Virus record (IMG/VR): IMGVR_UViG_2737471860_000008
Location: 1-48,484 of that record
Reading direction: 5' to 3' (one strand)
Length of the DNA: 48,484 nt
From: a virus
Lineage: Duplodnaviria; Heunggongvirae; Uroviricota; Caudoviricetes
Shown here: positions 1,979 to 48,484 of the stretch, piece after piece
How positions within the stretch are numbered: position 1 is the first letter of the stretch
Layout: every line of letters starts with the position of its first letter
Notes under the pieces: model-generated
Database searches by the model: none
The model's input: the letters and a program-made list of their open reading frames with translations, nothing else
Told to the model about the DNA's origin: nothing
Program-made: the position numbers and the translations under genes

Positions 1979-2020
1979 GAGTACTATCTCCGAATAGGGA
2001 ATCGAACCTGCAAATCAGGT

Positions 2021-2044
2021 AATAAAAAACCGCCATCAGGCGGC
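2021..2044 (-). terminator. Rho-independent terminator (minus strand)
   Basis: Hairpin CCGCC-ATCA-GGCGG followed on the minus strand by a T-run (TTTTTTATT); lies just 3' of the 55-aa ORF. Confidence 0.5.
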
Positions 2045-18299: not shown

Positions 18300-18788
18300 A
18301 TGGGCATAAGAGAACTAAACCTCACCAAAGAACAGCACGATTGGCTGAATGGATGGCTTGAACTGTGGGGCGCATGGGTTTATTCAGGCCGCCTGGAAAA
18401 GCGCATGAGCAGCGTAATAGCGAAGTTCATGGAGAGCGTAGAGCCGGGAAGAGTTATGACAAGGCCAATGTGTAATGATGATGATGGAATGTTGATTTCT
18501 CAGGTCGTCGATTCCGTCATGTGCATTGACAAGAAAGCCTTTGGCATCCTCCTCAGCTACTACGCTCATGGCTCTTCCAAGCACGCCATTGCATCTTACT
18601 ATCATTGCGTCGCAAGACCTCGCAAGATGTTATGCCGTGGCGGCGGGCGCATTCAAAAACCATCGCTCGCAACCTGTCGACGGGAAGTTGACGAAATCCT
18701 TAATGCCTCGTTGTTTATGATTTACCCGGTTCTGGATAGTGCGTTTAAAAATCGGAAACGTGTAGAGAAAATTAAACATGTAGCATAG
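18300..18788 (+). CDS. Late-gene antiterminator Q-like protein, 162 aa (by position; family not verified)
   Basis: Last gene before tRNAs and the lysis cassette, Cys/His-containing; no firm motif recognised. Confidence 0.45.
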   Translation: MGIRELNLTKEQHDWLNGWLELWGAWVYSGRLEKRMSSVIAKFMESVEPGRVMTRPMCNDDDGMLISQVVDSVMCIDKKAFGILLSYYAHGSSKHAIASYYHCVARPRKMLCRGGGRIQKPSLATCRREVDEILNASLFMIYPVLDSAFKNRKRVEKIKHVA

Positions 18789-18879: not shown

Positions 18880-18954
18880 GGGTCAGTCGTATAAAGGTCA
18901 TTACGGAAGGCTGTTAACCTTCTTATCGTGGTTCGAGTCCACGCTGTCCCGCCA
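18880..18954 (+). tRNA. tRNA-like gene, anticodon GUU (Asn), with imperfect acceptor and D stems
   Basis: Hand-folded cloverleaf: anticodon loop CTGTTAA, T arm CGTGG-TTCGAGT-CCACG, encoded CCA; one mismatch each in acceptor and D stems. Confidence 0.45.
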
Positions 18955-18959
18955 AACAT

Positions 18960-19035
18960 GCTGTTTTAGCTCCAATGGTAGAGCGGTCGCCTTGTAAGCG
19001 AATGGGTAGCGGTTCAAGTCCGTTAAACAGCACCA
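18960..19035 (+). tRNA. tRNA-Thr (anticodon UGU), 76 nt with encoded CCA
   Basis: Hand-folded: 7-bp acceptor stem GCTGTTT/AAACAGC, D stem GCTC/GAGC, anticodon loop CTTGTAA, T loop TTCAAGT. Confidence 0.7.
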
Positions 19036-39638: not shown

Positions 39639-40343
39639 ATGCTGGACGATATCATCCGGTCGTATATGTATACGCAATACAACGACGATGACAATCTGCG
39701 GGCGTTTTTTACTGCTTATAACTCGATGGCGCAGGGCATTTATGACTGGATGGTTAATGCCAACCTGCCGATTTTCATCGGTGACTACAACACCGGAGAC
39801 CAGCTCCGGTGGATTGCCCATGGCATCTATGGCGTTTTGCCGCCGGTGATTTCCAGCAGCGATCAGCAGGAGATAGGCCCATATAACACCTTCGAATTTA
39901 ACCAACTGGCATTCAATGAGTACCGGGTGATTGACCAGTCGAACCAGGTTGTTGTCTCCGATGACCTTTTTAAGCGGATCATGACCTGGAATTTTTATAA
40001 AGGTGACGGCTTCTATTTCTCTATCCCATGGATAAAACGGCGTATTCTGCGGTTCCTGTTGGGAGTGAATGGCACAGACATCCTCAACGACCAGCGATGG
40101 AGTATCTCGATCCAGTTTGTGGATGGCGGTATCGTGATTTCCATCTATAAGGGGCGCCGCAGGTTCACGCGGAGCGCTATCTACAACGCATCGGCCTATA
40201 ACTCCAGGAAGTACAACCAGAAGGACACGGCTTTTGTGATCACCGAGGATTTCGAGTTCGCCATTTTTTTCAAGCAGGCCATGGATAGCGGCCTGCTTCA
40301 CATGCCGTTCTATCAGTCCATTTCGGTGGAAATTATTGATTGA
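39639..40343 (+). CDS. Baseplate/tail-fibre-attachment protein (gpI-like), 234 aa
   Basis: Position between J-like protein and fibre genes. Confidence 0.45.
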   Translation: MLDDIIRSYMYTQYNDDDNLRAFFTAYNSMAQGIYDWMVNANLPIFIGDYNTGDQLRWIAHGIYGVLPPVISSSDQQEIGPYNTFEFNQLAFNEYRVIDQSNQVVVSDDLFKRIMTWNFYKGDGFYFSIPWIKRRILRFLLGVNGTDILNDQRWSISIQFVDGGIVISIYKGRRRFTRSAIYNASAYNSRKYNQKDTAFVITEDFEFAIFFKQAMDSGLLHMPFYQSISVEIID

Positions 40344-41174: not shown

Positions 41175-44087
41175 ATGGCACTAACCCTTTTGGCTACAAA
41201 CAACGCAGAAAGCACGCTGGCTTCTGCTATCAGCGCTACCGACACGTCGCTGATCGTTAGCGCTGGAACTGGTGCCGAGTTCCCTGATGCTGTGGCAGGC
41301 GAAAGCTACTTTAAGCTTACGATCACCGATGCCGCCACCGGCTCTCAGGTTGAGATCGTGAACGTGACAGCCAAGGCTGGTGACATCTTCACGATTGAAC
41401 GTGCGCAGGAAGGAACGCTGGCTCATGCGTGGGCGGCCAACGATATGGTTGCCAACATGATGACGGCGGATACGCTGAACATTATCGCTCAATATGCCCA
41501 GCAGGCAGCTGCATCAGCAGCACAGGCTGAAGAGTATGCAAATAACGCTTCTGACTATGCACAGAATAAGTTCACGTTCTATAAAACCTCAAGCGATCCA
41601 GATGGCACCATTGCAGGTCTGGCAGCGACTACTGACGGCCAGTCTTTCTGGGTAGCCCAGGGTCCGGATGCGCTTTCTGCTGCATGGCAGTATCAAAACA
41701 AAGCAGGCGTGGCCGTATTGCAGGCAAAGCAACCAGGCACAGCGGCTATAACAGGGACAATCCGCGAATTTCCGACGTTGGCTGCGGCGCAGGCTGATGC
41801 AGATGCCGGCAACATTCCTGTCGGGTCAACTGCGTATTACCGCAGCGCTGACGACGCAACTCTTGCGATTGAGGTTGTTAACACCGCAGGAACGCTGCAG
41901 CCTACCGGACGAAAAATGCCATCCGCAATGCCAATGGGTTACCAGTCTGCTACAGCTGTGAGTAGCGGTGCGGCTAATACCATTGCTATCACTATCCCCG
42001 GATTATTAGTGGATGGCAGTTTGATTTATTTCCTGTCTCCTATTTTGAATACGGCGGCTGTTAGCGTTACCGTGACAGATGCCAGGGGGAACTCGGTTAC
42101 TCGGGCAATACAGAAACAAAATAATGCAGCTTTAGTTGGGAATGAGTTGCTTCTCAATCAGCCCGCACTGATGGAATTCCGCACTGGGACTGCTAACAAT
42201 TTTGTCCTTGTGGCATCCGGCCCGGTAGCCGCTGAACTTGCGTCAAGAATTTCCACGCTTGAATTAAATAGCGTAGCGTTATTGTCTGGCGTTGCTAATT
42301 CTGGAGATGCCTATTCCGGCACCGCATCTACAATCCCTGGACTTGTTGCATCTGATCGCGTCTTTCTTTTTACGCCAAGCGCCACCAATACAACCCGTAC
42401 ACCAACTCTTTCCGTTAATGGTGGAACGGCAAGGCAGATTAAGCAAAATAACGGGACCAGCGTCGCTGCTGGAGATTTTGTAGCGGGATACACGTATTTA
42501 ATCAAATTTAATTTTTCATCAGCAGATTTTCGGATGCTGACCTACCCGGCTGACAGAAGTCGCGTACTTAATGGTTATTCAAAGGCAACTGTTACCAGCG
42601 ATGCTACCAGTCCTAACTCGGTAGCATTAACAATTCCCGGGTTACTTGGCGATGGAACTCAGCTTACTTTTGAGCCGGTTGTTGCAAATACCGGTGCTAT
42701 GACTTTGGTCATCACCGATATGTACGGTAACACAGTCACGCGTAACTTATTCAAAGGGGCTAATACTGCGCTAACTGGTGGAGAGCTGCGGGCGGCAATG
42801 CCAGCCACTGTGCAATACCGTGGCTCTCCGCAGAATAACTTTAAGCTGTTGTATGCCGGTGATCCAACCACGGATATACAGTCCCTCTCAAAAGACGTTA
42901 CGACCCTCAAGGGGGCGCTGACAGACCCGTATGCAGCACTGGCCGATAAACTTGTGGGCACCGGAGTGTCAACAGATCAGTCACCGTTCGGTACCATCAC
43001 CTGGTCCGCGGGAGTTAAGACCGTCACAAAGCGCCAGATAATTTGTACGTCTATCGGGTCTTCTGTGGGCGTTGGGGCGGGCTCTACTGGCGGCGGCGTT
43101 GCCGGTGCTCCTTATGCTCCGAACACGCTGTTTGTCAATGCCTTAAAAGAAGAGCTTAAGCAGTATGGTCAGTTCGATATTATTGATGATAACCAGTGCA
43201 TACCGACCCAGGCATTCCAGCAGTTCGCTGCCCAGCTCGCGAATTCGCCTTATTCAACCTCCGACTTTGTTTTGATCGTGGGGGGGATGAATGATGCACC
43301 AGTTGGTAACTACAATATGGGGCGCACATATCCGGGTCAGCAAACGACGCTTGAGGCTCTTGTCGACCTGTGCCTGGCACGTGGCGCTATTCCCATCATC
43401 TGTACGACTCCGCACCATAACGTAGAAATGCCTCAAACTTACCCGACAATACCAGGAGGGCAGCCTTTATTGTGGCCTTATCGCACATATAACGTAGGAC
43501 CGACAACAACTTATGCATTTGACTCTTCTTCAAAGACGATAACGCAAGGGGCGTTCGCAAACCCACTGTATGGGGGTAATATTCTCAAGCCAGGACACAC
43601 ACTGCATGTAGCAAGTGGCGCGAATGCTGGAGATTATACAATTGCGTCTATTTCATCTGACCGAACAGTAATAACAGTTGTAGAACCGATACCATCTACT
43701 ACTTCCTATGCCACCACCATCACGCAAACCAACCTGAACAGCATTATTGAGGACATACTGGAGCCGCCCCCATCCACATCTTTTGTCACAAAGGACTGGA
43801 GCGGAAGCGGCGTGAAAGTTTTGGGCGATGTGAGATTCGAGTCAGTAAACATGATGCAACGTACAGTGGCTCGCCAAAAAAATGCATTTTTGGCCGACTG
43901 TGAAAAGTCGTTCTTTAAATACGGCGTGGAGGTGGGCGGGTACTCGTCGGTATATAACGTCCCGGTTGGGAACTATAACCACATGAACGATAACGGGTAC
44001 ACAGTCACATTCGACTACACACTGAAAGTTGCGGCAAGAAAAATAGCCAATCTTATTTTTGGCGATAAATATTACTCTGCAGCATAA
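41175..44087 (+). CDS. Tail fibre/tailspike, ~970 aa, with SGNH/GDSL-like esterase domain (start moved to MALTLLATNN)
   Basis: GGAGGAG SD before ATG 41175; conserved fibre N-terminal domain; central region with GSS...GGMNDA...PHH blocks resembling SGNH hydrolases. Confidence 0.7.
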   Translation: MALTLLATNNAESTLASAISATDTSLIVSAGTGAEFPDAVAGESYFKLTITDAATGSQVEIVNVTAKAGDIFTIERAQEGTLAHAWAANDMVANMMTADTLNIIAQYAQQAAASAAQAEEYANNASDYAQNKFTFYKTSSDPDGTIAGLAATTDGQSFWVAQGPDALSAAWQYQNKAGVAVLQAKQPGTAAITGTIREFPTLAAAQADADAGNIPVGSTAYYRSADDATLAIEVVNTAGTLQPTGRKMPSAMPMGYQSATAVSSGAANTIAITIPGLLVDGSLIYFLSPILNTAAVSVTVTDARGNSVTRAIQKQNNAALVGNELLLNQPALMEFRTGTANNFVLVASGPVAAELASRISTLELNSVALLSGVANSGDAYSGTASTIPGLVASDRVFLFTPSATNTTRTPTLSVNGGTARQIKQNNGTSVAAGDFVAGYTYLIKFNFSSADFRMLTYPADRSRVLNGYSKATVTSDATSPNSVALTIPGLLGDGTQLTFEPVVANTGAMTLVITDMYGNTVTRNLFKGANTALTGGELRAAMPATVQYRGSPQNNFKLLYAGDPTTDIQSLSKDVTTLKGALTDPYAALADKLVGTGVSTDQSPFGTITWSAGVKTVTKRQIICTSIGSSVGVGAGSTGGGVAGAPYAPNTLFVNALKEELKQYGQFDIIDDNQCIPTQAFQQFAAQLANSPYSTSDFVLIVGGMNDAPVGNYNMGRTYPGQQTTLEALVDLCLARGAIPIICTTPHHNVEMPQTYPTIPGGQPLLWPYRTYNVGPTTTYAFDSSSKTITQGAFANPLYGGNILKPGHTLHVASGANAGDYTIASISSDRTVITVVEPIPSTTSYATTITQTNLNSIIEDILEPPPSTSFVTKDWSGSGVKVLGDVRFESVNMMQRTVARQKNAFLADCEKSFFKYGVEVGGYSSVYNVPVGNYNHMNDNGYTVTFDYTLKVAARKIANLIFGDKYYSAA

Positions 44088-45043: not shown

Positions 45044-46075
45044 ATGGCGCTGAAGCTATTAGCCAATAATAACGCAAAGAGTGTGCTCGCTGCGGGTATT
45101 AGCGCGTCCGCTACCGTTATTACCGTGGGTACTGGAGCGGGGTCTTTATTCCCTTCCCCTGTATCTGGGCAGAGCTATTTCAAATTAACGATAACCGACG
45201 CGGCCACGAAAACAATTTCCGAAATTATGCACGTCACGTCTGTATCTGGTGACGTGATGACAGTAATTCGTGGTCAGGAAGGAACTACGGCACGCGTATG
45301 GTCAACGAATGACATTGTCGCGAATTTAATGACCGCCGGGTCATTATTATCTTTCCTGCAGATCAGTAATAACCTGTCAGAAATTAAAGATGCTGGTGAT
45401 GATGCGGTAAATGAAGCCCGTTATAACCTCGGAATATCTGATTCCTCTGGTTTTGTCGGTCGTTCACTTGGCGCTCCAAAAGTTTTCTATGCAAACGGAA
45501 CCTATACGCGATCTCCTCTGGCCCGTTATGCAAAAGTAACGTTGACAGGTGCCGGTGGCGGCGGTGGCGGCTGCCAGGCCTACAACAATACAGAAACCTT
45601 CTCCGGTGCTGGCGGCGGCGCGGGCGCGACCATTATCGTATGGGTTGACCTGTCTGCTGCCAGTTCTTATGCGATTACTGTCGGCAAGGGTGGTAAGGGC
45701 GGAGTTGGCGCAGTAAGTGGTGCAGATGGTGGGGCCACCTCGTTTGCCAGCCTGTTCTCAGCTCCTGGCGGGAAAGGCGGCGTGAAGTCAGGCGTGTCCA
45801 ATACCGCCGGCGGCGCCGGAGGTACGGCGGCGACCGGAGATATCAGGATCAACGGTGGTACCGGCTCAGATGGACAGACAGGCTCAAGCCTTCTGACGGG
45901 CAACGGCGGGGCGTCGTATTTTGGCGGCGGTGGCCGGGCGGGTTCTCAGGCCGGTATTGCTGGCGCAGCTCCCGGATCCGGTGGTGGTGGCGCGTATGAC
46001 CTTGGGTTTACCGGTGCGGCATTTACCGGTGGTGATGGTGCTACTGGCATGGCGATCGTGGAAGAATTCGCGTAA
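45044..46075 (+). CDS. Second tail-fibre protein with Gly-rich C-terminal domain, 343 aa
   Basis: N-terminal ~105 aa paralogous to the N-terminus of the 41175 fibre (…YFKLTITDAAT…QEGT…); C-terminal GGGGxG-rich repeats. Confidence 0.65.
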   Translation: MALKLLANNNAKSVLAAGISASATVITVGTGAGSLFPSPVSGQSYFKLTITDAATKTISEIMHVTSVSGDVMTVIRGQEGTTARVWSTNDIVANLMTAGSLLSFLQISNNLSEIKDAGDDAVNEARYNLGISDSSGFVGRSLGAPKVFYANGTYTRSPLARYAKVTLTGAGGGGGGCQAYNNTETFSGAGGGAGATIIVWVDLSAASSYAITVGKGGKGGVGAVSGADGGATSFASLFSAPGGKGGVKSGVSNTAGGAGGTAATGDIRINGGTGSDGQTGSSLLTGNGGASYFGGGGRAGSQAGIAGAAPGSGGGGAYDLGFTGAAFTGGDGATGMAIVEEFA

Positions 46076-46079
46076 TGGC

Positions 46080-47240
46080 TTACACTCCTGCACGACCATC
46101 GATGTAATCAGCCCACCACTGCATCATTTCTCTGCGCTTATCGAGATACTGAGCATGGTTGTAAATTCCGCGCACAGATCCGCCGTTGGCATGTGCAAGT
46201 TGCACTTCAATAGCATCAGCAGGCCATTCGTGCTCGTTCATAATCGTGCTGAATTCATGCCTGAATCCGTGACCGCTTTCCAGACCCTCATAGCCGATTT
46301 GTTTGATCACAAGCAATACCGCGTTCTCGCAGATTGGCTTCTTCTTATCGTTGCGTCCGGCAAAAACAAACTCTGATACTGGTTTAGTGATGGAGCTTAG
46401 CGTAGTGAGAAGTTCAACCACCTGGTCCGACATCGGGACCACATGAATCTTGCGTCCCTTCATCACGCTGGCGTCGATGGTGATAATCCTGTTTTCAAAA
46501 TCGACGTTCTTCCATAGCATGGAACGAAGCTCTTTCGTTCTTAGGGCTGTGTAGCGTAAAACTTTGGTCGCAATGAGCGATACGATACTTCCTGAAAATG
46601 TTGCCAGTGCTTTGTTGAATGCCGGGATCTGGTCTGCAGGAAGAAACGGGAAGTTCTTCTTGCGGTATCCTTTCATGGCGTCAGCAAGGTCAGGTGCCGG
46701 GTTATATTTAGCCCTGCCGGTGACAATAGCGTAACGGAAAACCTCGCCGCATCTTCTGCGGGCTTTGTTGGCTCGCTCCATTGCACCGCGATCTTCAAAT
46801 CTGCGGATTACTTCCAGTAGTTGCATCGGCTCAATATCCTGAATTTCAAGGCCGCCGATGATAGGTAAAATGTCGTCATCAAACATTTTTGCAAGTTCAT
46901 TTGCATAGCCTACTGACCAGACTTGCTTCTTGTGCTCGTACCATTCCTTGTAAATCGCACTAAATGAATTGTTGTTAGACGAAGCCTTTTTCGCCTTTAC
47001 CGGATCGATGCCAACCGAGATGTCTTTCCTCGAAGTCCATGCCTTATCCCTTGCCTCCTGCAAAGTCATTAGCGGATATTTTCCTACGGTTAGGACTTTC
47101 TCCTTACCGTCAATCTTGTAGCGAAGCTGCCATACCTTTTTCCCGGATACAGGGACATAAAGGTACAGTCCATTACCATCGAGAAGGCGGTATGGTTTTT
47201 CTTTCGGCTTTGCTGCTTCAATCTGCTTAACGGTGAGCAT
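46080..47240 (-). CDS. intS: Tyrosine integrase (IntS/P4-type), ~386 aa (start at MLTVKQ; alternative GTG at 47276)
   Basis: C-terminal catalytic region with R...H..R...Y pattern (HGFRHEF...RGIYNHAQY); adjacent to tRNA; matches my recollection of K-12 IntS. Confidence 0.85.
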   Translation of the reverse strand: MLTVKQIEAAKPKEKPYRLLDGNGLYLYVPVSGKKVWQLRYKIDGKEKVLTVGKYPLMTLQEARDKAWTSRKDISVGIDPVKAKKASSNNNSFSAIYKEWYEHKKQVWSVGYANELAKMFDDDILPIIGGLEIQDIEPMQLLEVIRRFEDRGAMERANKARRRCGEVFRYAIVTGRAKYNPAPDLADAMKGYRKKNFPFLPADQIPAFNKALATFSGSIVSLIATKVLRYTALRTKELRSMLWKNVDFENRIITIDASVMKGRKIHVVPMSDQVVELLTTLSSITKPVSEFVFAGRNDKKKPICENAVLLVIKQIGYEGLESGHGFRHEFSTIMNEHEWPADAIEVQLAHANGGSVRGIYNHAQYLDKRREMMQWWADYIDGRAGV

Positions 47241-47284
47241 GGGTAAAAATCCGGTGGGTAAAATTATTTTATCCACTTTTTACC
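47241..47284. promoter_or_regulatory. Cluster of GGGTAAAA/TTTTACCC repeats upstream of int (putative arm-type sites)
   Basis: GGGTAAAA at 47241-47248 and 47256-47263, TTTTACCC at 47277-47284; same 8-mer twice near attR. Confidence 0.4.
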
Positions 47285-47401
47285 CGTCATGTAGTGCGGC
47301 TGTCAACGATCTGACGCGAACCATGACGAACTGTAAATCTACGGAAGGCTTGATATTCAGGGGATTTTACGGACTGGTACGGATTGGAGCGAACTGATAA
47401 A

Positions 47402-47416
47402 TGGTGTCCCCTGCAG
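47402..47416. repeat. attL core (copy of the 15-bp att repeat, part of argW 3' end)
   Basis: Exact match to 1690-1704. Confidence 0.8.
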
Positions 47417-47476
47417 GAATCGAACCTGCAATTAGCCCTTAGGAGGGGCTCGTTATATCCATTTAACTAAGAGGAC
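47402..47476 (-). tRNA. argW: tRNA-Arg (anticodon CCU), 75 nt
   Basis: Minus-strand sequence GTCCTCTTAGTTAAATGGATATAACGAGCCCCTCCTAAGGGCTAATTGCAGGTTCGATTCCTGCAGGGGACACCA folds as cloverleaf with anticodon CCT. Confidence 0.9.
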
Positions 47477-47551: not shown

Positions 47552-48484
47552 TTATGCTGGGTTTTTATCATTTTTCTTAATGTTTTCCGCACGTTCTGCT
47601 TTTTGGCGTGCTTCTGCTTTACGCTTGTTGCTCATGTCGTTACGAATCTGTGCATGACTCATTAACGCGAAGATAAAGGTGCCGCCGCAGATGTTCCCCG
47701 CTAAAGTAGGTAGTGCGAAGGGCCAGATGAAATCGCTCCAGTGCAGCGTGCCGTTAAACACCAGATAGAGGATTTCAACAGAACCGACAACGATGTGGGT
47801 GGTGTCACCCAGTGCAATAAGCCAGGTCATCAATATAATCACCACAATCTTTGCCGCACCCGCAGCAGGAAACATCCAAACCATAGTGGCGATCAGCCAG
47901 CCGGAAATGATCGCGTTGGCAAACATCTCGCTGGGGGTGTTCTTCATCACATCCATGCCGATTTTGACAAATGCATCGCGAGTTTCTTCATTGAAGATAG
48001 GCATATATTCAAATGCCCATGCAGCAATACCTGTCCCGAGAATATTACCCAGCAGCACGACGCCCCATAATCGCATAAGTAAGCCGACGTTGCTCATTGT
48101 CGGTTTTTGCATGACGGGTAGTACCGCAGTCACGGTGTTTTCGGTAAATAATTGCTGGCGGGCCATAATGACGATAATAAAACCAAAGGTATAACCGAGA
48201 TTCTCCAGTAAGAAGCTGCCTGGCACTCCTTCCAGTTCGACATGAAATATCCCTTTTGCCAGTAGCGAAGCGCCCATCGACAGACCCGCCGCAATGGCTG
48301 ACCACAGTAGCGCCATTGCGTCGCGTTCCAGCTCTTTTTCACCATCCTGGCGGATATGCTCATGAATTGCCATCGCCCGGGAGGGGAGTCGATCTTCATC
48401 TATTTCTATTTTTTTGCCGCGCTCTTTTTCTTCGCTCTCAACTTCAATTTCGTCGCTGTGTTGATCAATTTTGTCGTTGTCCAT
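47552..48484 (-). CDS. yfdC: Inner-membrane formate/nitrite transporter-family protein, 310 aa (start codon at window edge)
   Basis: Multi-TM protein; matches my recollection of E. coli YfdC, the gene that neighbours argW. Confidence 0.7.
   Translation of the reverse strand: MDNDKIDQHSDEIEVESEEKERGKKIEIDEDRLPSRAMAIHEHIRQDGEKELERDAMALLWSAIAAGLSMGASLLAKGIFHVELEGVPGSFLLENLGYTFGFIIVIMARQQLFTENTVTAVLPVMQKPTMSNVGLLMRLWGVVLLGNILGTGIAAWAFEYMPIFNEETRDAFVKIGMDVMKNTPSEMFANAIISGWLIATMVWMFPAAGAAKIVVIILMTWLIALGDTTHIVVGSVEILYLVFNGTLHWSDFIWPFALPTLAGNICGGTFIFALMSHAQIRNDMSNKRKAEARQKAERAENIKKNDKNPA

Follow-up and report, generated by a model that had tools for sequence, protein, structure and literature searches.

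A T-loop-like motif (1997-2013, minus strand) directly ahead of the excisionase gene of a P22-like prophage is best explained overall as a cis-element under selection, a mimic of the half of attB on the tRNA side, a reading to which we assign a probability of roughly 50%. That the motif is a functional element under selection is likely, and it probably represents a site, previously undescribed, for the control of prophage excision. It does not work as an att site; instead, it is the next piece of argW beyond the crossover core, displaced 293 bp to the far side of xis. The motif sequence was not mentioned in a phage context in the literature searched.

The window analyzed is a stretch of 48,484 nucleotides, and the motif contains within it a 16-mer, GGAATCGAACCTGCAA, that is found exactly, on the plus strand, both at 1998-2013 (TTGCAGGTTCGATTCC on the xis strand) and in argW at 47416-47431, as the initial annotation had stated. 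These two sites are the sole matches in the window with two or fewer mismatches; the chance expectation for a 16-mer at this tolerance is 0.03, and two or more matches occurred in 0 of 100 shuffles. The placement of the 16-mer between the excisionase gene (ATG at 1978-1976) and a minus-strand terminator (2046-2027) was likewise confirmed, as was the statement that no cloverleaf can form there, since neither ARAGORN nor a relaxed Rfam scan (E up to 10) of 1600-2300 detected a tRNA gene or pseudogene at the 16-mer. Identity to argW ends on either side of it. However, the argW 15-mer that precedes the 16-mer (47402-47416) had been overlooked: it also repeats, at 1690-1704. The left end consequently carries the last 30 nt of argW split into two pieces that are contiguous in argW, with order and orientation unchanged; the pieces share the G at 47416 and have 293 bp, including xis, between them. 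A 13/16 direct repeat between the motif region and codons 6 to 11 of xis was judged to be a chance match.

The recombination module and its crossover core

The prophage lies in argW, which encodes tRNA-Arg(CCT) (47402-47476, minus strand), between a cscB-type transporter gene (1-1248) at one end of the window and yfdC (47552-48484) at the other. The xis/torI gene (1778-1978) and int (46080-47240), both on the minus strand, are located at opposite prophage ends. The former encodes the TorI/HkaC recombination directionality factor (RDF), a 66-aa protein 100% identical to HK620 HkaC, Sf6 gp18, and TorI, and E. coli genomes annotate the gene as torI. The latter encodes an intS-type integrase of 386 aa from the ATG at 47240, a start that was mapped from the CUS-3 and HK620 annotations. 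In KplE1, HK620, Sf6, and Kapi1, attP lies between xis and int, so that the two genes become separated at opposite ends of the prophage (PMC2951348; PMC8787464). The present prophage carries this known KplE1/Sf6/HK620 IntS-attP-TorI recombination module, sharing with KplE1 (CPS-53), HK620, and Sf6 the integrase arm, the 15/16-nt core at the 3' end of argW, an identical TorI, the location of attP, and the separation of int and xis. The KplE1 recombination module is reportedly the subject of the 2007 study of Panis, Mejean, and Ansaldi. As published, the module comprises attL, attR, intS, torI, and the Int arm and core, TorI, and IHF sites, whereas the T-loop motif is not listed (PMC2951348; PMC3509656).

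Unoccupied argW sites cease to match the window after 1704, and in strain D5 the match stops 15 nt inside tRNA-Arg. Sf6, HK620, Kapi1, phiv205-1, and other phages match the window from 1690 on. Together, these boundaries define the att core as 1690-1704/47402-47416. The left copy, attR in KplE1 nomenclature, is TGGTGTCCCCTGCAG, the 3'-terminal 15 nt of argW, and is identical to the right copy. Its counterparts are the annotated attP cores of HK620 and Sf6 and, in KplE1, the 16-nt core CTGCAGGGGACACCAT (PMC2951348). Two arm-type integrase sites, arranged as a direct repeat of TATTTTACCC (GGGTAAAATA on the xis strand), overlap the xis stop codon at 1762-1783. The GGGTAAAA arm-type repeats near the xis stop recur adjoining int at 47241-47290, within an int-side att arm (47241-47401) that also holds GTTCG, GTCCG, and GATCG TorI sites, by the site definitions of PMC2951348, and the intS promoter; in lineages with a different Int, GGGCATAA stands at the position of the GGGTAAAA arm repeats. 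On the other side of xis, reading of the sequence places a GGAG Shine-Dalgarno (SD) element at 1988-1991, kept in all aligned lineages, followed by the motif and, just upstream of the module, by the intrinsic terminator that closes the early-left operon (2046-2027), which is homologous to the HK022 tL4 terminator region.

Several further features were observed in the prophage. A perfect 8-bp inverted repeat, TCCCCTGC/GCAGGGGA (1695-1702 and 1721-1728, 18 nt apart), has one arm in the att core. The CCCCTGC partner of this arm is retained by almost every diverged module (L093-L127), and the repeat may represent an integrase site or else a hairpin in RNA, located between xis and int. A 43-aa open reading frame on the minus strand (1654-1785), annotated in related phages as the HkaB/Sf6 gp17 homologue, spans the att core, and its product therefore differs between the phage and prophage states. 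Phage-borne tRNA-Asn(GTT) and tRNA-Thr(TGT) genes are present at 18880-19035 on the plus strand (compare Kapi1, where they stand just before the lysis module). Two plus-strand genes encode tail-fiber/spike-like proteins, one of 970 aa (41175-44084) and one Gly-rich and of 343 aa (45044-46072), the latter located between the tail genes and int. Their 57% identity over the first 101 residues suggests two putative receptor-binding proteins with a common N-terminal adaptor domain.

Conservation of the motif upstream of xis

The motif was surveyed in phage records and in loci from one genome per species, with TorI relatives 36 to 88% identical. About 14 diverged Enterobacterales lineages carry the motif core GTTCGATTCC(C) 16 to 25 nt ahead of the xis ATG; these include the Erwinia phages Midgardsormr38 and phiEt88, the Salmonella phages Emek (true xis ATG at position 2495 of locus L010) and g341c, and prophages of Serratia, Citrobacter, Pantoea, Edwardsiella, Enterobacter, and Phytobacter. 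In the window, the conserved core reads GTTCGATTCCC (1997-2007). Alignment of 15 lineages showed GTTC.ATT.C to be invariant, with unrelated sequence 5' of it, and the SD-proximal part of the motif-bearing leader has diverged between lineages. The distance from the motif to the ATG varies (16, 18, 19, or 25 nt), and the motif is therefore noncoding. In comparisons of the TorI-type, Emek-type, and phiEt88 clades with one another, identity averaged 0.96 for the motif 10-mer, compared with 0.40 for the TorI protein, 0.34 for synonymous third positions, and 0.29 for the 30 nt upstream, in a sample whose lineages are not independent and in which horizontal spread of the leader could inflate the apparent conservation, although the divergence of the SD-proximal leader counts against such inflation.

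The motif is always the 5' edge of the module. All of 80 E. coli-type viral contigs share a conserved stretch that starts at the terminator T-run, approximately 50 nt from the ATG, and takes in the motif, whereas the terminator stems preceding this stretch differ; the 37 nt before the xis ATG are identical in 65 of them. These contigs were retrieved in a protein scan of viral contigs as 100%-identical E. coli copies, and they therefore inform on the mosaic boundary, not on diversity. In the Emek locus, homology to the xis of P22, ST64T, and ST104 stops at 2454, and the motif begins 10 nt on, at 2464. This boundary indicates that an IntS/TorI-type module replaced the P22 xis-int-attP module there and that the motif is the outermost piece traveling with the module. 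The first approximately 18 codons of the P22-type xis remain as a stub in Emek (within 2392-2476), and the same was seen in g341c (L011).

Pattern scans of viral contigs, the matches of which are mostly real tRNA genes, so that the result is an association statistic only, placed the GATTCC motif followed by an SD and an ATG before TorI-like open reading frames in 41 of the 121 matches listed and the GAATCC version in 0 of the 122 listed. The initial annotation had allowed that the match might reflect the generic T-loop consensus, with no conservation in related phages. In fact, the 16-mer occupies the same position in HK620, Sf6, Kapi1, phiv205-1, and CUS-3 and is present, with few single-nucleotide polymorphisms, in 80 of the 80 E. 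coli-type contigs, and its core recurs in distant genera.

The motif is absent in about 24 of 38 sampled lineages, including the isolated phages Chronis and EhrS_49 and the relatives of phiEt88. In two loci, L100 (Dryocola) and L119 (Enterobacter sp.), the 30 nt before xis consist of the terminator T-run and TTATTGCCTG/CCCG joined directly to GGAGGAAA, which looks like a clean deletion of approximately 25 nt, comprising the motif, between short CTGG repeats. Loss in many lineages, these apparent deletions included, indicates that the motif is dispensable and that the module can persist without it; like in vitro excision, for which a 135-bp attR lacking the motif suffices (PMC3509656), this counts against the main reading. 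In Midgardsormr38 (L007, about 2455-2485), a 16-bp tandem duplication of the motif (CAGGTTCGATTCCCGT CAGGTTCGATTCCC) stands directly before the xis SD.

A candidate operator ahead of the RDF gene

Judged from sequence, there is slightly less than an even chance that the motif is an operator for a recombination protein, with the integrase and TorI both tentative candidates and the integrase slightly ahead. The motif lies in the xis leader, just after the early-left terminator, and its sequence is found in the argW attachment region on the T-loop side, in the half of attB directly 5' of the crossover core. As an operator, it would be a sequence-specific DNA site of 10 to 13 bp. The core-binding and catalytic domains of the integrase, TorI, or both would bind it, and binding would couple Int and RDF levels to xis expression from read-through early-left transcripts. 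According to a 2013 report of Menouni et al., torI is said to be expressed by read-through that is normally blocked by Rho. The authors of the KplE1 work described the control of RDF expression as an open question for the module (PMC2951348).

The integrase is a candidate because the motif is the same as the half-site in attB that all member integrases have to recognize. All lineages target the same core, TGCAGGGGAC(A/G)CCA, and directly 5' of this core, attP has TTCGATGT(A/C) where the tRNA has TTCGATTCC. Since attP thus keeps a degenerate T-loop beside the core, the T-loop is very likely an Int core-type half-site. The motif reproduces the T-loop half of attB (GGTTCGATTCC) exactly and agrees with the attP half-site consensus RTTMGRTGYM in 9 of 10 positions. 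Furthermore, it accompanies either arm-type specificity, GGGTAAAA or GGGCATAA, which is what one would expect if the catalytic and core-binding domains, themselves conserved, read the site. However, the motif has neither an adjoining overlap region nor a partner half-site, its 3' side being the SD and leader at a spacing that varies by several nucleotides, and a lone core-type site would be bound only weakly by integrase, which argues against the operator reading. One possible arrangement, which we put forward tentatively, is that the integrase core-binding domain, delivered from the arm sites at the 3' end of xis and with or without TorI, would bind the motif and throttle RDF expression.

TorI is a candidate because the motif contains the GTTCG core. 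TorI sites are GTTCG, GATCG, and GTCCG, and TorI represses intS through such sites (PMC2951348); the pentamer is present in the motif as GGTTCGA. In the int-side arm, the base that follows the TorI site is C or T in 20 of the 20 sites read, whereas the motif continues instead with invariant ATTCC, and bona fide TorI sites form phased arrays, whereas the motif is a single site. In phage phiEt88, the motif persists even though the arm repeats have changed from GTTCG to GTWAC. As a discriminator against a TorI operator, this case is weakened: the phiEt88 leader may be recombinant, its closest RDF relatives are without the motif, and the N terminus of its RDF looks TorI-like.

Two kinds of known system bear comparison with the motif. 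P4 Vis at PLL and P2 Cox at Pe act on autoregulatory RDF operators. The similarity lies in an AlpA/Vis-type RDF whose own recognition pentamer, GTTCG, stands just upstream of its gene; here, however, the site is single (two in Midgardsormr38), is followed by invariant ATTCC, and is not overlapped by a promoter. The tRNA-derived att sites, reportedly classified by Williams in 2002, are similar in that the motif is the T-loop half of the argW attB and the attP half-site is a degenerate T-loop. The motif differs from them in lying 293 bp and one gene away from the overlap region, and this detachment means that normal core-site strand exchange is not possible at the motif.

Alternative explanations and implications

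We consider it unlikely that the motif acts at the RNA level, in the 5' untranslated region of xis on a read-through transcript, either by AUUCC:GGAG pairing that damps translation or as a T-loop mimic. The weak UUCC:GGAG anti-SD pairing is possible in all lineages, with candidate pairs that never vary, and appears in the minimum-free-energy folds of several of them; an outer GGUU:AACC or UUCG:UGAA helix is present in L097, L120, and phiEt88. The conserved G-UUCGAUU-C also corresponds exactly to T-loop positions 53 to 61, and the Edwardsiella and Serratia versions are able to close a T-arm-like hairpin. However, RNAalifold analysis of 15 lineages returned 0 consensus pairs, and eight single folds gave z-scores of -2.0 to +0.8, not significantly different from shuffles. 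The T-stem partner is missing in most lineages (Emek, L120, and L127), and anti-SD pairing accounts for UUCC only, not for the invariant GTTCGA. A full-length Rfam match to the enterobacterial small RNA STnc130 on the plus strand (1928-2055) was rejected as subthreshold (27.4 bits versus a gathering score of 55; E of 0.025 to 0.064). This match is antisense to the 5' end of xis and ends at the bidirectional hairpin, and it is driven by the terminator and AU-rich parts, with the motif unaligned. STnc130 is itself only a putative small RNA near dmsA in Salmonella.

Similarly improbable is a neutral fossil, in which the motif would be left over from an att core that was older or longer, or from an earlier integration, and was split by insertion of xis and the arm; it would have no present function. 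The initial annotation had proposed a trace of an older integration. As passive decay, this proposal is contradicted by the motif itself, which keeps about 96% identity across clades whose synonymous sites (0.34) and upstream DNA (0.29) have reached saturation and is thus conserved where neutral sites are randomized. The overlap and acceptor parts have decayed while the T-loop part has not, the motif has been duplicated in tandem in Midgardsormr38, and it is retained at independent mosaic joints. As an account of origin, a fossil att copy stands as a possibility. The 15-mer and 16-mer are consecutive pieces of argW in the same order and orientation; with the T-loop remnant beside the attP core, a tRNA-derived direct repeat stands on each side of xis; the leader 3' of the motif has a weak resemblance to the acceptor strand (in Midgardsormr38, CACCGGAGATACACTT versus TGCAGGGGACACCATT, 9 of 16 positions); and the motif has been lost in many lineages. 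These features suggest that the motif may have originated in a second att core, since dead, of which it formed the tRNA-proximal half, with xis left between two direct att-derived repeats. An ancestral attP with longer tRNA identity and an insertion of xis, or a duplicated core, is a plausible origin but does not explain why only the T-loop part was kept.

There is only a slim chance that int is served here by a pI promoter under CII activation (annotated as "promoter: phage integration"), the cII-binding site of which would cover window positions 2010-2022. The GenBank annotations of HK620 (1664-1702) and Sf6 (18404-18431) cover the 16-mer, so that a lambda-type pI shares the location in these records, and it resembles the motif in being a regulatory site just upstream of recombination genes. 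However, the gene that follows here is the RDF gene and not int, and a sigma-70 scan of 1600-2300 on both strands (-35 and -10 hexamers at 16- to 18-nt spacing) found 0 promoter-like sites. The canonical cII site of lambda and P22 is TTGC-N6-TTGC, whereas the proposed site, TTACCTGATTTGC, is TTAC-N5-TTGC in the E. coli type. Its half-sites, unlike the T-loop core, are not kept outside that type, where the sequence 5' of the motif is unrelated. Such a promoter would also coexpress xis with int, and for intS a separate promoter has been mapped to the att arm (PMC2951348).

That the 16-mer serves as a functional secondary or alternative att core, a possibility raised in the initial annotation, is very improbable. 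The reading has a precedent in the CUS-3 GenBank record (CP000711.1), which starts and ends on the 16-mer, with the copies at 1-16 and 40192-40207 labeled "attL core" and "attR core"; the study behind this record is said to be that of King et al. in 2007. The annotated pair is literally the 16-mer pair described here, but that pair is not the crossover site. At the start of the CUS-3 record (L001, 1-16; L004, 1-30), the 16-mer is followed directly by the 15-mer and then by the same IntS arm. In UTI89 (L129, 681-916), which is 100% identical over that CUS-3 end, the "attR core" is followed at once by torI and then by dsdC. Because it is bounded by the 16-mer rather than by the true 15- to 17-nt core, the CUS-3 record lacks torI and the real attR; it was cut 293 bp short of the latter by an annotation error. 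In the present window, bacterial homology gives way to phage homology at the 15-mer (1690-1704) and not at the 16-mer (1998-2013), and the 16-mer pair, taken as a direct repeat, leaves xis/torI and arm sites outside and so does not enclose the whole element. Sequence 3' of the motif shares nothing with argW, which leaves no common overlap region on that side. In vitro, excision works with a 135-bp attR (PMC3509656), the phage-side primer of which maps to 1782-1801, so that the 16-mer is not included. In Kapi1, integration at argW was lost once the 17-bp attB had been precisely deleted (0/24 versus 19/20 colonies), although the T arm remains (PMC8787464). The 16-mer repeat is therefore a trap for prophage-boundary calling, and pipelines that choose the longest tRNA-matching direct repeat could repeat the CUS-3 error.

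Chance convergence on the generic tRNA T-loop consensus is scarcely credible: although GGTTCGAnTCC is found in many tRNAs, the match is 16/16 where 0.03 would be expected even with 2 mismatches, it continues the att core exactly and in the same orientation as the consecutive piece of argW, and its GATTCC version is specific and kept across lineages.

An element of 10 to 13 nt under strong purifying selection upstream of the RDF gene is a candidate for control of the excision switch. If the operator reading is correct, the recombinase itself would set the int/xis ratio, and with it the balance between integration and excision, in a module in which int and xis cannot be cotranscribed. If the motif is indeed an attB-mimicking operator, xis would have been acquired through integrase-mediated insertion into an ancestral attP, and the dead left att copy would later have been co-opted. 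At argW in E. coli and Shigella, few recombination modules are commoner than the well-studied IntS/TorI module, versions of which are found across the Enterobacterales.
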